Below are positions 431-46,700 of a DNA stretch of 64,000 nucleotides, in pieces. Each line of letters opens with the position of its first letter. The first letter of the stretch is position 1. Source of the DNA: Octopus vulgaris (taxonomy: Eukaryota); contig OX597819.1 in assembly GCA_951406725.2 (NCBI GenBank), forward strand, positions 35,898,001 to 35,962,000, given 5' to 3'. The notes below the pieces were generated by a model, which saw nothing but the letters and a program-made list of their open reading frames with translations, did no database searches and had not been told where the DNA came from. Made by a program: the position numbers and the translations under genes.

Positions 431-1279
431 TTAACCCTTTTGTTACCATATTTCTGTTGAGATGCTGCTAACAAAGCACGTGGAGTTCTGTTTTTGATTC
501 GATGGTCATTCGGAATGCTCACAGCATCCATATTCCTACCGCTCTATGTCACGCTGGTGAGATCCATATTGGAGTACGGGATTCAAGCCTCTTCTCCTTA
601 TCTCCTCAAAGACATACATCATCTCGAAAGAGTCCAGAAGCTGGCTACCTGCATAGTTCTTGGTCTCAAGCATTTGTCTTATGAAGAAAGGCTGAAGACG
701 CTCGACCTTTATTCTCTTGAAAAACGACGCCGCCATGGTGATCTCATTCTTGCTCACAACATCATAAGCGGAAAGTGTAATCTCTCGAAAGAGCTGTTCT
801 TCACTCCTGCTCCAGAGTGTGGGCTGTGGGGTCACTCCGAAAAGCTCTATCTACGACGATTTCATCTCAATCAAAGGAGAGGGGCTTTCTCTGTCCGGGT
901 TGCAGATCCGTGGAATAAGCTGCAGGACGAGATAGTGTAGATGCCGACGACCGCTTGGTTCAAAGTCTCTCTTGACCAGAAATGGCCTGAACTCTTTGTA
1001 TGACCACCCTCCCTGTACATAACTCCCTGTCCCCCTACATATCCTTGCTTTTGCTTTTTGAGCCAATAAAAATTGAATTGAATTGAATTGTTTCTTTTTA
1101 TTAATTTTAAATATAGCAAAGAATTTAGTAATATAACTTAGTTATCATTAAGCTAGTGTTAGGAACATAAATTATCACTAAGGTTTGGTGGAAGATTTTA
1201 ATTCATAACTTATGAAAACAAGATATTTGTGCTACAGAGCCAGAGCTGGTTTCAGCTGGGTTAGTAACAAAAGGGTTAA
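431..1279. mobile_element. piggyBac-like MITE (family P1) interrupted by a CR1 LINE fragment
   Basis: TTAA at 431-434 and 1276-1279 flanking perfect 12-bp TIRs CCCTTTTGTTAC / GTAACAAAAGGG. Confidence 0.75.
465..1090 (+). mobile_element. 5'-truncated CR1-clade LINE (ORF2 C-terminus, 3' UTR, (AATTG)n tail)
   Basis: ORF 494-940 LYVTLVRSILEY...LERVQKLAT...LSYEERLKTLDLYSLEKRRRHGDLI is the typical CR1 post-RT region; AATAAA followed by (AATTG)n tail. Confidence 0.9.
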
Positions 1280-4531: not shown

Positions 4532-5020
4532 TTAATGTCTGATTTCCATGCTGGCATGGGATGGACAGTTTAACAGGAGCTGGTCAGCCAGAAGACTGCA
4601 CCAGGCTCCAGTTGTCTGTTTTGGTATGATTTCTATAGCTGGATGTCCTTCCTAACAGAAACCACTTGACAGAATGTACTGAGTGCTTTTTATATGGCAC
4701 CAGCACCAGCACCAGTGCATTTTTATGTGGCACTGGCACAGGGGCCTCATATGTGGGGCACTAGCATGGGTGCTTTTTATGTGGCACTGGCACAGTTGCT
4801 CTTTTGTACAGAACTGACATAGGGGCTTTCTATGTGGCACCAGGGGATTTTTATGTGGAATTTTTTTATGTGACACCAGCATGGTTCATCTGTATATAGA
4901 GGTGGCACAGGTACTTTTTATGTGACACCAGCACAGGTGCTTTTTACATGGAACCAGCACAGGTGGTTTTTACATGGCACCAGTATGGATGCTTTTTATG
5001 TGACCCCAGTATGGGTCTTC
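4496..5020 (-). mobile_element. RTE LINE 3' end (family C) with degenerate GTGCTTTTTATGTGGCAC minisatellite
   Basis: (CAT)n tail followed by reverse complement of the 3' UTR end seen at 9290-9472. Confidence 0.75.
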
Positions 5021-11240: not shown

Positions 11241-12284
11241 GAACCTTTTTGGGACTGACTAGTGACTGGTGACAAGAAATGGGTTCTCTATAAAAATGTC
11301 AAGTGCTAAAGAGAGTTGGTAGGGAGAGGAGAAACACCAGTACCCCAGGCCAAAGAAGCTCTTCACCAACATAAGGTGTTGTTATCTGTTTGGTGGGGTA
11401 TGAAAGGTTTAGTCCACTTTGAACTTTTAAATCCAAACCAAACAATAACAAAAGAGATCTACTATGGGCAGCTTAAGTGGCTTAAGTCAGTGCCAGAAGA
11501 AAGACAACAATCTTTGGTTTCAAAACGAAAGGTGTTCTTCCATACAGCAAGGATGACATTCCAGAGGCTGGAGCAGTTTGAATGGGAAATGATGCCCCAC
11601 CCACCATATTTGCTGGACATTGCCCAATTTGATTATCATTTATTCTGCAGTCTTCAAAATCATTTGGACACAAAGAATATGAATTCTGCAGATGAGGTCA
11701 GAACAGTACTGGAGGAGTATTTTTTCATTACAGACAAGTGAGTTTTGGAAGAGGGGCCTTGCAAGATCATTGCAGAAAATGAAGGAGAGTATATTTTAGA
11801 TTAAAAAAAATCTTTGTTTATCTTAATTTTGAGAAGTAACAGAGGCTGTGTGGTAAGTAGCTTGCTTACGAACCATATGGTTCCGGGTTCAGTCCCACTG
11901 TGTGGCACCATGGGCAAGTGTCTTCTACTATAGCCTCGGGCTGACCAAAGCTTTGTGAGTGGATTTGGTAGACGGAAACTGAAAGAAGCCTGTCGTATAT
12001 ATGTATATATGTATGTGTGTGTGTATATGTTTGTGTGTCTGTTTGTCTCCCCAACATTGCTTAACAACTGATGATGGTGTGTATACGTCTCCGTAACTTA
12101 GTGGTTCGGCAAAAGAGACCGATAGAATAAGTACTAGGCTTACAAAGAATAAGTCCTGGAGTCGATTTGCTTGACTAAAGGCGGTGCTCCAGCATGGCCA
12201 CAGTCAAATGACTGAAACAAGTAAAAAGAGTAAAAAAGAGTAAAGAGTATAAAAAAACCATGTTATTTATGGGTTGACCCAATA
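11241..12284 (+). mobile_element. Mariner (DD34D-type) transposase pseudogene 3' part with 3' TIR, split by a SINE
   Basis: LVTGDKKWVLY...KVLLSVWWG...PHPPYLLDIAQFDYHLF; TIR TTATTTATGGGTTGACCCAA+TA at about 12263-12284. Confidence 0.88.
11843..12248 (+). mobile_element. SINE family A
   Basis: Matches 3183-3620; inserted in the mariner 3' region. Confidence 0.9.
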
Positions 12285-18532: not shown

Positions 18533-19010
18533 TCAATTCAATTCAATTCAATTTTTATTGGCTCAAAAAGCAAAAACAAGGCCATATAGGGGGACAGGGA
18601 GGATGGTCATCATACAAAGAGTTCAGGCCATTTCTGGTCAAGAGAGACTTTGAACCGAGCGGTCGTCAGCATCTTCACTATCTCGTCCAGCAGCTTATTC
18701 CATGGATCCGCAACCCGGATGGAGAAAGCCCCTCTCCTTCGATTGAGAGGAAATCGTCGTAGATAGAGCTTTTCGGAGTGACCCCGCAGCCCATGCTCTG
18801 GAGCAGGAATGAAAAACAGCTCTTTCGAGAGGTTACACTTTCCGCTTATGATGTTGTGAGCGAGAATGAAATCACCACGGCAGCGTCGTTTTTCGAGAGA
18901 ATAAAGGTCGAGCGTCTTCAGCCTTTCTTCATAAGACAAATACTTGTGACCAAGAACCATTCAGGTAGCCAGTTTCTGAACTCTTTCAAGATTATGTATG
19001 TCTTTGAGGA
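18533..19010 (-). mobile_element. 5'-truncated CR1-clade LINE, second copy
   Basis: ORF 18610-18960 nearly identical to 494-940; (CAATT)n tail on plus strand. Confidence 0.9.
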
Positions 19011-32790: not shown

Positions 32791-33601
32791 GAAACATGTA
32801 GAAAGTCCAGGACAACTACCCAGCATACCTTTCACTGAGATAGAGATGATCTGCAGCACAATTCTTTGCTACTTCTAGCAATACAAACAACTACATAGAG
32901 GCTTCTTAACTGGCTTGAAAAAACCATAAGGTTGCATGAAGTAGTAAGCTTAGGGTACTGAAGCAGAGTGTGTTGAACATTATAATAAAGTTAGAAAACA
33001 AATAAAAAAAAGTAACTTTAGCATTGTTCACCGTTGGAGGTGATGTGATATATTAATGAGCAAATTAAATAAAGAGCTGGTAAATTGTGGAGCGGTGTAC
33101 AAACTGGATAATGAATGGAATTGTCATGAAGGTTGGCACCCTGCCAATTTTTAACCTGTTGCAAATGACTCACAGACTATTTATTCTCTATTGGAATGCC
33201 ACTTGGTTTGTATTTGGTGATTGGTCCACATGACAACCTGGAAATATTTAAGAGATACATTTAGTGTTTCTTCTCTCTCTCTCACACACACACACATACA
33301 CATGCATATAAGTATACGCATATGTGTATATATATATTTATATATATATACACACATACACACACACACATATGTATTTATACATAAGAAGTATTATTAT
33401 CTAGAAGACCCAAAGAGTGGCAGGTAATGCTAAGTAAGTGCTATGGACAGATTGTAATTAAACCCTTGGTTCGATAGTGATATGAGAAGGAGTCTAATGT
33501 GGGTCTTGAATTAGCATGCATATATATATATATTAGACAAAATGAAATAACAAAGCTAAGGCTGTAAGGAGTTTTCAGGACATTTATAAGATATAGATAT
33601 A

Positions 33602-33649
33602 GTCTTACAGCTGTTTCTGGGATATTATGGATATCCCTTCGTCAGAGAC
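33602..33649 (-). ncRNA. Minimal type I hammerhead ribozyme motif
   Basis: GUCU CUGACGA A GGGAUAU ccaua AUAUCCC A GAAA CAGCUG UA AGAC: full core, stems I and II, palindromic stem III ACAGCUGU, GUA cleavage triplet. Confidence 0.75.
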
Positions 33650-34598
33650 AATGTGAGATGGTCAAATAGAGGCAGATATTTGAGTTTGAAATGAGGAATT
33701 ATTATGGAAAAGGAGGAGATAGGGAAAATAGAGGGAAATAAGAGAATGGAAGTAGAAATATAATACAAAATATATAAAGATATTGTAGTTGTAGTTCCAT
33801 TATTCGAGTAAAGTGGTGTATAGAAGTGGTAAAAATGTTTCTTGTACATGGTAAGTTTCAGTAGTAGTTCATGTTTAGTCATTTCAAAGTATGGAGCCAT
33901 AGATTCAGATGTTGTTCATTCAAAAGGGTCTTGTGGTGTGAATAAAAGTTTGAGAATGTATTGGTAGTATTTGTGGATAGATCGGGGAGGGGAGAGATGT
34001 GTATGATTAGAATGAGGAGATAGGTCAAAGTGAAAACATGAAGACAAAATGAGACAAAGAAAGAGAGAAAAAAGAAGAGAGAGAAAAAAGATAAAAAAGA
34101 GAGAAAAAGATGAAAAGAATGAAGAAAAAAATGAAGGGTGAAAGAAGTGAGAAAATTAGTGTTAGTTGGTGGTCAAGATGATGTGAGGGGAGGATGGGAG
34201 AGGAGTGGGGGAAGGGATAGGAAGAGATGAGAAGGTAAAGAGTGAATGAAGTGTGAGATATGTGAGTAGGGATGATGTAATACAGCTGCATTAAGGGATG
34301 GGTAGAGAAAAGGTATGGGTGGGGTTTTAGTAGTAAAATTTAAAGTGGAGGAAAGAATACAAGGATGTCAAATTTCTATAAATAGACGTATGTGATTGTA
34401 TATGTTAATGTGATAGGAAAAAAGGGGAGGAAAAAAGGTATAATGACATACGTATGCACGCACACATGTGCATATACATGTGTACATATGCATACATATG
34501 TATATACACACACACATACACATATATATATACATACGCATATACATACACATACATATATACACATGCATGCTATCTCATATATACCATCTCACATC

Positions 34599-34646
34599 AT
34601 CTCTGATGAAAGGATAGCCACAATATCCTAGAAACAGCTGTAAATG
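34599..34646 (+). ncRNA. Hammerhead ribozyme motif (first of tandem pair)
   Basis: CUGAUGA A AGGAUA gccacaa UAUCCU A GAAA CAGCUG UA; 3' strand of stem I disrupted. Confidence 0.55.
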
Positions 34647-34810
34647 TGTTAATATGCATATACATGTGTACATATGCATGTGCATATACATGTGTACATA
34701 TGCATACATATGTATATACACACACATATACACATATATATATACATACGCATATACATACACATACATATATACACATGCATGCTATCTCATATATACC
34801 ATCTCACATC

Positions 34811-34858
34811 ATCTCTGATGAAAGGATAACCACAATATCCTAGAAACAGCTGTAAAAC
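34811..34858 (+). ncRNA. Hammerhead ribozyme motif (second of tandem pair)
   Basis: Same motif 212 nt downstream, part of a tandem duplication of about 34447-34855; stem I imperfect. Confidence 0.55.
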
Positions 34859-34985
34859 TATATCTGTATCTTTTTCCTTATAAATCTCCTGAAAACTCCT
34901 CATAGCTTTAGCTTTGTTTTCTCATTTTGTCTAATATATACACACACATATTTATGTATGTATGTATGTATGTGTGTATGTATAA

Positions 34986-43422: not shown

Positions 43423-43835
43423 TTAAATAAAATGAGACAACAAAACTAAGGCTGTGTGGAATTTATAGGACATTTATAAAGGGAAAGGTAGTCTTACAGC
43501 TGTTTCTGGGATATTAGGGATATCCCTTCATCAGAGATGATACGAGAGAGTTAACTAGAGGGAAATAGTAGAGTTCAATATAAGGAGTTATTTCAGAAAA
43601 GGCTGGATATAGGAAGTATAAAGGGAAATAAAAGAATAAAAATAAAAATATATGTTGGATGTTACAGTTGCAGTTCCATTATCCAAGGAAAGTGCTGTGT
43701 AGAATGGGTAGAAATGCTTCTTGTCCATGATATGTAGAATCCGATGAGACTTCATATTTTGTTATTACAAGTAGATAGTGTGGGGACATACTTAACCTTA
43801 TCTGCCACCTTGGCTCTTCTGGATACCAATACCTC
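43423..43835 (-). mobile_element. Family H1 Penelope-like fragment with hammerhead motif at 43491-43538
   Basis: Minus strand AUCU CUGAUGA A GGGAUAU cccua AUAUCCC A GAAA CAGCUG UA AGAC; collinear with 33531-33850. Confidence 0.72.
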
Positions 43836-44629
43836 TTATATATATATATATATATATATATATCATTAGTGTAACATATATCCCAAAAAGAAGTACACTC
43901 TAAAGCAGTGGTTTTCAACCAGGGTTCTGTGGAACCTTAGGGTTCCGCCAGTACAGTTCTGGGGTTCTGCAAGAAACTACATAAATGCTAAACTCGACAA
44001 TAATTTTTAATTCTCCTGTGCAGATATGTGTGTACATGTTAGGCCTACGTGTACGTCTACGATTTGCATGCCAGCGTAGATGGCCCTGATCCTTGGTGTG
44101 TACATGTATGTGCACATCTACGAGTTGCATGCCAGCTTAGATGATGGTTTAGTTTGCTTTTGTAAAATACGAGTGACTATATTTGGAAGAAACATTTTAA
44201 CTGCGTAAGCCATTTAGGTGCTGTTAATACGCCTTTTAAAAGATCTTTAGCTTTTTAAAACGCGTTTTTGTAAAATCTTTTTCTTGTATGACGTCTATTA
44301 ATATTTGGTCAAATGTAGAGATAAAAAAAGAAGTAGGGAAACTGAAACTAAATTATAGAATATGTAAATATGCATAAATATTAATTCCTTACAAATTTCT
44401 GAATTAGAACAATGAACAAATAAATGACATTTTAAATTCAAATCCGAAAATCTATTTTATAATTATATGCTTATTGTTTAAATATAATCAAATACCTATT
44501 ACTAAATAACATTAATTAAAAAAGCTAAATTTTACATCGTTAAACTTGCTACATTTTAAAGATCTTTTTGTCCTGCTACTATTAGGTTTGCTTTTATATA
44601 TATACAATTCTGCTTACAGCCTTGCATGT

Positions 44630-46700
44630 ATGGATAGATTTCTGAAAAAAATGTAAGTTAAATACAGATGAAGAGACACAGGGTCTGAGGCAGTCTGTTG
44701 AAGTTGCAGTCACTGCTAGTGATGCTGCTTCGTTGATATTACCAAGAAATGATGGAAAACTCATTTGTGGAATTTGAGCCATTTGATGAACAGTTCACAT
44801 TAACAGAAGAAGAAGAACTTGTTAGTGTTTTAAATGACAGAACATTAAAGTTGAAGCATTCTGAGCTTCACCTGAATGCATTTTGGTTGCTGGTTGAAAA
44901 GGAATATCCTGCAATCACCCAGAAAGCACTGCGACCTCTTGTGCAGTTTTCAACCTCCTACTTCTAAAAGTTCATCAATATTGTGAAAACTAAAAGTTCA
45001 TCAATATTGTGAAAACTAAAAGTTCATCAATATTGTGAAAACTACATAGCTCTGAGATTTACTTGGACTGGAAACCCAGACTGCTCTTCACCTTTGTGTA
45101 CTGTTTCTGGGGAGAAGCTGGCTAATAGTGCTATGGCACCAGCCAAACTGAAACGACACTTAACGACTAAACATCCAGAGTTGTCAGGCAAAAAAGAATA
45201 ATGTTTTAAAAGAGAATTGGCATTTAATAAAAGGCAATTTTCTATGTTTGTCAAAAAGTTCAAGTTGAGTGACAAAGGACAAGAAGCAAGTTATGCTGTG
45301 ACGGAGATAGTTGCAAGAAAAATGAAATCTCATACCATCACTGAAACTGTAATTTTACCTGCATGCTAGGAAATAGTGAGGATAATGTTTGGAGAGGATG
45401 CTGTATCAGAGCTAAATAAAATTCCACTTTCTGACAACATAAAAGTAGGTTCATTCAAGACATGTCAGGAGACATTGAGTGCAATATTAAGTCAAAAATA
45501 CTGAAACATAAGTTGTTTGCACTTCAAGTTGATGAGAGTACAGACATCACTGGTAAATCACAGCTCCTTGTATTTGTTTGTTTTATTAATGATGAAGCTA
45601 TTGTAGAATACGCCCTGTGTTGCAAAGAGTTGACAGAAACAAGAAAAGGACAAGATGTATTTGATGTTTTAAATTCATATTTAGAGTATTGTGGATTGAA
45701 CTGGAAAAACTGTGTTGGTATTTGTACAGATGGTGCCCCTGCAATGACAGGATGTCTTAAAGGCTTTGTCCCAATTGCACAAAAACAAATCCAAATGTTT
45801 CATTCATAGAAAAGCACTAGTTGCTAAAACTCTTGGACCTGAACTAAAATCTTCATTGGCTATGGTAGTGAAAATAGATAATTACTTCAAAATGAGGCCA
45901 CTTAAATGTCGACAGTTTGTGAAACTTTGTGTGGATATGGAAGCAGACCATCCCACTTTAATCCAGCACACAGAAATACGATGGTTGTCAAGGGGAAAAG
46001 TATTGTCTCACTTTTACGAATTAAGAGAAGAGTTACTGACCTTTTGTTTGCAAGAAAACCTGAAAGACTTTGTAGAATGTTTGAGTGATGACCATTGGTG
46101 TTCCAAGTTAGCATATCTTGCCGATATATTTCATGAGCTAAGCCTCTTGAACAATGGCATGCAGGGCAGGAACGAAAATATCTTGTCTTCTATTGACAAA
46201 ATAAATGCTTTTCAGAAGAAATTGACAATATGGAAGAAACACATAGCTGCAGGAAATTTGGAAATGTTTCCAAGTGTTTTTAAAAGGAACTGTCAAGAAA
46301 CTGCGCTACTGATTTTGAACCATTTGCACACTTTGTTAACAAACCTTGACAAATATTTTCCATCGATATCTGTTGACCAGTATGACTGGATTAAGAAGAA
46401 CTTGCCAGTGTTTTAAATGACAGAACATTAAAGTTGAAGCATTCTGAGCTTCACCTGGATGCATTTTGGTTGCTGGTTGAAAAGGAATATCCTGCAATTG
46501 CCCAGAAAGTGCTGCAACCTCTTGTGCAGTTTTCAACCTCCTACTTCTGTGAATTTGGATTTTCAGCCCTGACAGCCACCAAGCACAAGAAGCGAGCACA
46601 ATTGCTGTCTGTGGAAGATGAACTTCGTGTGTGTCTATCAAAAACACGACCCAATCTTAAAGAGTTGTGCAAAAAACACCAGGCTCAAGTTTCTTATTGA
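44630..46700 (+). pseudogene. hAT transposase pseudogene (SCAND3/ZBED8-like)
   Basis: BED-like PLCTVSGEKLANSAMAPAKLKRHLTTKH, FALQVDESTDI, GICTDGAPAMTG, TEIRWLSRGKVL, LAYLADIF, FSTSYFCEFGFS; stops and frameshifts. Confidence 0.92.

Follow-up and report, generated by a model that had tools for sequence, protein, structure and literature searches.

Our analysis indicates that a hammerhead-bearing locus of Octopus vulgaris, near 34 kb in the 64,000-nucleotide stretch studied here (contig OX597819.1; hereafter the window), comprises two copies of a Penelope-like retrotransposon of the Hydra clade, both truncated at the 5' end. The copies lie head-to-head and likely derive from one insertion into a (TA)n site, and their hammerhead is predicted to cleave as a dimer only; we give this reading a probability of about 0.88. 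The locus itself is ordinary transposon debris. It matters as a pointer to at least five Hydra-clade families, one of them young, in which stem III appears to have stayed of the obligate-dimer type while its sequence changed.

Results

The main copy at this locus lies on the minus strand. Its pseudo-LTR (pLTR) 3' end forms the left arm (33533..33662), with a fixed 3' end common to 30 loci, and carries a hammerhead at 33602..33649 in which every pair is intact. Read from 33649 to 33602, the motif has a 4-bp stem I, a 7-bp stem II, the palindrome ACAGCUGU as stem III and a GUA triplet, exactly as quoted in the first-pass annotation, and the cut placed there between 33606 and 33605 stands as a prediction from the motif. 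The defining features of the minimal type I class (CUGANGA, GAAA, a UH triplet, stems I and II both paired) occur together in the left arm only, and by these features the motif would indeed belong to that class, in a form suited to action as a dimer. A scan with Rfam gave no match at 33540-33720 at E<=10, and no hammerhead among the 150 matches listed of 167 for the whole window; the miRNA matches in that scan were dismissed as microsatellite noise.

Beyond the pLTR end, a short internal (TA)n tract (33520..33533, minus strand), at which tail-less copies stop, leads into a 3' tail of about 135 bp (33384..33519, minus strand) whose sequence is the 5'UTR of the unit that follows in a tandem precursor; the element bounds first given, 33531..34936, are too narrow, since this tail lies further left. 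On the other side of the pLTR a long, non-coding, pyrimidine-rich and microsatellite-like 3'UTR (33663..34585, minus strand) is 5'-truncated near 34585. This interior matches the 3'UTR of the full-length copy L179 and also L013, L014 and L022, and inspection of the open frames found no ORF portion of the element within the window copy. The left-arm pLTR is 3.9% diverged from its subfamily consensus, the whole left copy 6.4%.

The right arm (34798..34935, plus strand) is a second copy, inverted, 5'-truncated and tail-less, which ends in (TA)/(CA) repeats and is 9% diverged from the subfamily consensus. The two arms align over 143 bp at 84.6% identity, so that the inverted arms are real, and the suggestion that the inverted one is a partial pLTR holds as well. 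Further core motifs in the window lie at 34599-34646 (+), 34811-34858 (+) and 43491-43538 (-). The second of these, in the right arm, has kept its core and lost two of four stem I pairs and one stem II pair, which leaves a 6-bp stem II; the first is cut off after the triplet and has lost three of four. They are the two halves of a local tandem duplication across the junction (34465..34856; period 212, 180 bp at 98.9% identity), which is younger than the insertion. With stem I broken in both plus-strand motifs, the claim that each arm bears a hammerhead fails, and for the same reason so does the suggestion that transcripts from either strand could be cut.

The third motif, with a 3-bp stem I, belongs to a separate insertion of a sister subfamily (43423..43786, minus strand; loop II CCCUA). 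An inverted tail-end piece (43786..43840, plus strand) abuts the 5' end of that copy and is followed by (TA)n; the layout is that of the 33.6-kb locus, with an inverted arm that consists of the tail only.

The window also holds debris of other kinds. Two fragments (461-940, plus strand; 18610-18960, minus strand), 92% identical and the source of two of the chance core matches, are presumably the C-terminus of a LINE-type RT. Broken transposase frames at 45435-46416 (+) are likely, we assume, of hAT/SCAN-Buster type, and 11310-11741 (+) we take to be a Mariner-like transposase fragment.

In the 2.8-Gb assembly (227 contigs) a pattern for core plus stem III had 1,782 matches, against one for a reversed control, which is well beyond chance expectation. 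Two raw RNA runs, with another species label than the DNA, gave 202 and 279 reads, five in all more than 95% alike, in both orientations and with ends that do not pile up. Thirty loci end at a common 3' position, some 85 nt downstream of the hammerhead and followed by (TA)n, and their 5' ends are scattered. Stepwise upstream extension of the copies gave an endonuclease remnant, then RT, then the whole unit, so that the proposed extension toward an RT + GIY-YIG ORF did reach such a frame: single, with the GIY-YIG domain C-terminal, and interrupted by stops and shifts in L179, L180 and L185. The L179 unit (about 4.0 kb) begins with a truncated pLTR and a 5'UTR, continues with an interrupted reading frame of some 860 codons and ends in a long 3'UTR followed by the pLTR that carries the hammerhead; a pLTR thus stands at both ends, with the hammerhead (position 4622) inside the 3' one and close to the unit end at 4717.

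The Hydra clade is characterized by RWK, DKT and CxCX5C motifs, CxxC/CxH around a conserved E/N and the lack of CCHH (Craig et al. 2021, PMC8557442, section 11). We found IRRMRWK and FSDKTG in L152, L161 and L179 and, reading by eye, CNCRPGSIC (CxCX5C), CKLCLKE (CxxC before E) and LLNKYNE..CNH (CxH after N) in L043, L058 and L063; the proteins of the longer copies have YRDD and no CCHH. Insertion into (TA)n is seen at the 3' ends of copies. The family thus resembles the described clade in its C-terminal GIY-YIG without CCHH, in RWK, DKT, CxCX5C and the (TA)n target, and in a 3' hammerhead with palindromic stem III, and we assign it to the Hydra clade by its protein motifs. Its unit of about 4 kb exceeds the length of Hydra elements, generally below 3 kb, which is given as a tendency rather than a criterion (PMC8557442). 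The endonuclease of the longer copies is 41% identical to P0001, while Pfam GIY-YIG scores stayed under the cut-off (E 0.013-0.014); a protein database gave one match among 437 longer candidates, unnamed. The Penelope-like identity first proposed is borne out by these copies.

The alternative offered with it, a dedicated non-autonomous family of retrozyme or MITE-like kind, 1.4 kb long and with hammerheads in its inverted ends, is largely refuted and extremely unlikely. It could appeal to the missing ORF of the window copy, to the 212-bp tandem with two motifs, to short internally deleted pLTR-5'UTR-pLTR forms elsewhere (L198, L211, L228) and to the lack of any intact frame among the 26 close matches of the window element's family. 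Against it, the interior is the 3'UTR of an ORF-bearing unit, of which the window copy is a truncated member. Nor is 1.4 kb a family trait: divergent partners are 181 to 1233 bp apart among the first 100 of the 1,782 matches, with wider spacings also seen, and most loci (60 of 86) have one arm only, where a TIR or MITE element would show a fixed length and constant inverted termini. A non-LTR retrozyme would consist of tandem units, each with a complete hammerhead and no coding origin; the only tandem here is the one-off 212-bp duplication, in which stem I is broken.

At L198, L202, L211, L216 and L228 there are short deleted forms whose sequence skips from the 5'UTR and first codons to the pLTR; L228 has three direct motifs and one inverted motif in 1.3 kb. 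They are possible starting points for retrozyme-like units.

The window element's family is most likely dead by now, its window copy decaying neutrally and doing nothing for the host. With 142 of 5,491 candidates scored, 26 of 143 matches reached at least 60% identity to the RT query, and none of these 26 has an intact frame, the longest open frame having 336 aa against about 860 needed. Divergence from the consensus is mostly 4-9% among the 30 nearest copies, and up to 14.5% where the alignment enters unrelated sequence.

How well the motif is conserved depends on the level of comparison. A core no better conserved than its flanks had been named as evidence against a ribozyme. Within one subfamily this is what we see (core 21/325 = 6.5%, flank 548/8859 = 6.2%; no difference). 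The 30 copies compared there had been chosen by their upstream sequence, a choice that biases the result toward the flank. Conservation of the motif is clear once subfamilies or families are compared with each other. Equal change within a subfamily is expected, and makes this the wrong test, because dead copies decay neutrally. Across five subfamily consensuses, built from 7-30 copies each after a sixth group of three near-identical loci had been dropped, 43 of the 48 hammerhead positions (31 of which are fixed by the search patterns) are invariant; four loop bases and one G.U account for the changes. The stem I and triplet positions, free in the search patterns, are invariant at 10/10, compared with 16/40 in the upstream flank and 41/68 downstream (57/108 in all).

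Four other Hydra families in the genome, three known from one locus each and one from four, are 38-49% identical over an RT piece. In each of them stem I is paired and has its own, different sequence, stem II is long, and stem III is a self-complementary 8-mer without a loop (ACGAUUGU, ACAAUUGU, and ACAUAUGU twice). The five families agree in keeping every catalytic base, the UH triplet and a paired stem I, a pattern that suggests selection on the motif between subfamilies and families. At L242-L244 no hammerhead motif was found in the stretch taken.

Stem II covariation, which the first-pass annotation had read from the window copies, is weak evidence for the hammerhead. The A-U pair at 34.6 and 34.8 kb counts once, because both copies are one local duplication, and the covariation in the window comes down to one event. 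Exact genome counts for this pair are G-C 323, G.U 26, A.C mismatch 19 and A-U 6. The A-U copies form no subfamily, because their loops differ, and their five independent events against 1.5 expected amount to a slight excess (P about 0.02-0.04). In an eight-sequence alignment of single copies no covariation measure rose above shuffles.

Folding predictions bear on how the hammerhead could act. The active monomer fold makes up 0.2% of the predicted ensemble, whereas for the consensus dimer the active fold is the lowest-energy fold, at -30.7 kcal/mol. In the lowest-energy dimer of the window's left motif stem III forms and stem I does not; for L240 and L241 the dimer of lowest energy is the active one, and for L238 and L245 it is partly different. 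Cleavage is accordingly predicted only for dimers joined through the palindromic stem III: two hammerheads would pair via ACAGCUGU into the active fold, as folding and PMC4209133 suggest. The minus-strand motif is the sole intact one of the 33.6-kb locus, and for the partner that it needs it could use either another transcript or the 43.5-kb motif, which lies on its own strand at a distance of 9.9 kb. We identified no host gene among the open frames of the window, so that cutting of host RNA by the locus seems unlikely.

Whether the motif is kept for cleavage at all may be asked. Its retention could be due mainly to RNA pairing or protein binding, with poor or no cleavage in vivo. Minimal metazoan motifs are weakly active in vitro (PMC4209133); in Anolis the ribozyme is dispensable for insertion in vitro, cuts only with protein present, and no read ends at its site (PMC11167929). 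In our own data none of 59 mapped 5' ends of truncated copies lies at +1, that is, there is no peak at the cut; six lie at -8 to -2, within the palindrome, and eleven at -59 to -52. We nevertheless find this explanation rather unlikely, since pairing alone would not need the catalytic bases, the UH triplet and the paired stem I that all five families keep.

The arrangement of the arms is best seen across loci. After removal of eight duplicates and with complex loci counted once, 86 loci were available with flanks of 1.5-3 kb; L014 and L084, two arms of one locus, were counted as singles. Arm pairs are undercounted in this set because the flanks are so short. Divergent pairs were present in 19 of the 86 loci. 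Among the first 100 of the 1,782 matches there were five divergent pairs, one direct and no convergent one. Many copies have the tail of about 135 bp after the pLTR, ending at a fixed site before (TA)n; its sequence continues into the ORF start in L179-L183 and ends 50 nt before the ATG in L181. Exactly one arm carries the tail in 16 of the 19 divergent pairs, neither in three and both in none (P 0.002 against 0.5).

It is the family pattern rather than the window locus from which a single event is deduced here, because the two window arms have no informative derived change in common. That absence would equally suit two independent insertions of the same family, the second into the microsatellite-like 3'UTR of the first, as would the greater divergence of the right arm (9% against 3.9% for the same part of the left), the junction within TA/CA-rich sequence and the mixture of subfamilies at some loci (L121, L132). 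Such a history would not predict a strong divergent bias with one-sided tails across loci, both window arms belong to one subfamily, and the 43.5-kb copy repeats the layout with a tail-only arm. We therefore regard independent insertions as very unlikely.

A single insertion could proceed as follows, by analogy with PMC11167929, where the tail is tied to two reverse-transcription start sites and both target strands are nicked and extended. The element protein would nick both target strands at (TA)n, reverse transcription would start at two RNA sites, the pLTR end and the tail end, and the two incomplete cDNAs would be joined at their truncated ends to give a head-to-head pair.

Discussion

Hammerheads, inverted 5' copies and one-sided tails are all known from Penelope-like elements. 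Minimal dimer-type hammerheads in pLTRs, with pairs on opposite strands, are reported in PMC4209133, and optional one-sided tails of 30-40 bp as well as inverted 5' copies in PMC8557442. New are the Hydra families described here, the length of the tails (113-135 bp), the loop-less palindrome that varies across families and a young family whose frame is intact. Literature searches found no publication on the window element's family; the main text of PMC13282606 mentions neither hammerheads nor Hydra, and its supplements or repeat library may hold the family.

Among described elements, Penelope-13_HM resembles the window locus: PMC8557442 (File S1/S2) lists it with a 5'-truncated copy in inverted orientation and with hammerheads on both strands. 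Hydra-1_Obim from the same source differs widely from the window family, as compared by eye, in hammerhead stems I-III, RT and EN. All 26 Hydra-type rows of File S2 of PMC8557442 have 1-3 loop bases in stem III, whereas the window family is loop-less, a state found in that file in two Chara elements only. The window family also departs from the described Hydra elements in its unit of about 4 kb with a long 3'UTR, and its tail of about 135 bp is longer than the 30-40 bp of PMC8557442.

The hammerheads of PMC4209133 share with ours a 7-bp stem II, a 4-bp stem I, an unpaired base before stem II, G10.1-C11.1 and a palindromic stem III, along with opposite-strand pairs 100-700 bp apart and a majority of single, truncated copies. 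Their stem III has 1-2 bp, in contrast to a full 8-mer palindrome in the window family; no octopus case was found in the portions of that paper considered here. PAc Poseidon of Anolis (Frangieh et al. 2024, PMC11167929) is alike in its optional tail between two RT start sites, its AT-rich target and its hammerhead in the pLTR. In PAc, however, the hammerhead and the start codon overlap and RT begins within the ORF, whereas in the window family the hammerhead lies about 270 nt upstream of the ATG, both RT-start ends are in UTR, and the inner end is on a (TA)n tract resembling the target. Non-LTR retrozymes (bioRxiv 10.64898/2026.07.22.740005) have a type I hammerhead related to those of PLE pLTRs; unlike them, the window family has no array of complete units and belongs to an ORF-bearing unit.

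What Penelope hammerheads do is left open in PMC8557442 and PMC11167929. One speculative answer, which we consider clearly unlikely, is that the loop-less 8-nt palindrome is also an RNA dimerization signal that pairs two element RNAs for double insertion by one protein dimer. This dimer would reverse-transcribe both RNAs into a doubly nicked (TA)n site, one cDNA starting from the tail end and the other from the pLTR end, and head-to-head pairs with a one-sided tail would thereby be explained. If true, this would provide the missing role of Penelope hammerheads.

The young Hydra family (L237, L238, L239, L246; e.g. G000:C6:134010000-134016500) makes this idea testable and suits in vitro work; in the literature covered we found no test of a Hydra-clade protein. 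Its copies are 98-99% alike, with an intact open frame (about 950 aa to about 980 codons), a long-stem-II hammerhead with ACGAUUGU as stem III and a 113-bp tail on one arm only. On the minus strand of L238 (707-1290) inverted and direct 5' pLTRs begin at nearly one base in a near-perfect fold-back, which is unlike the window junction and may mark snap-back synthesis. Three more Hydra families (L240:1272, L241:5737, L245:4760) have open frames of 806-904 codons and hammerheads of their own, and hammerhead-like cores with different stems at L067:2380 (-) and L068:1120 (-) perhaps belong to other Penelope families.
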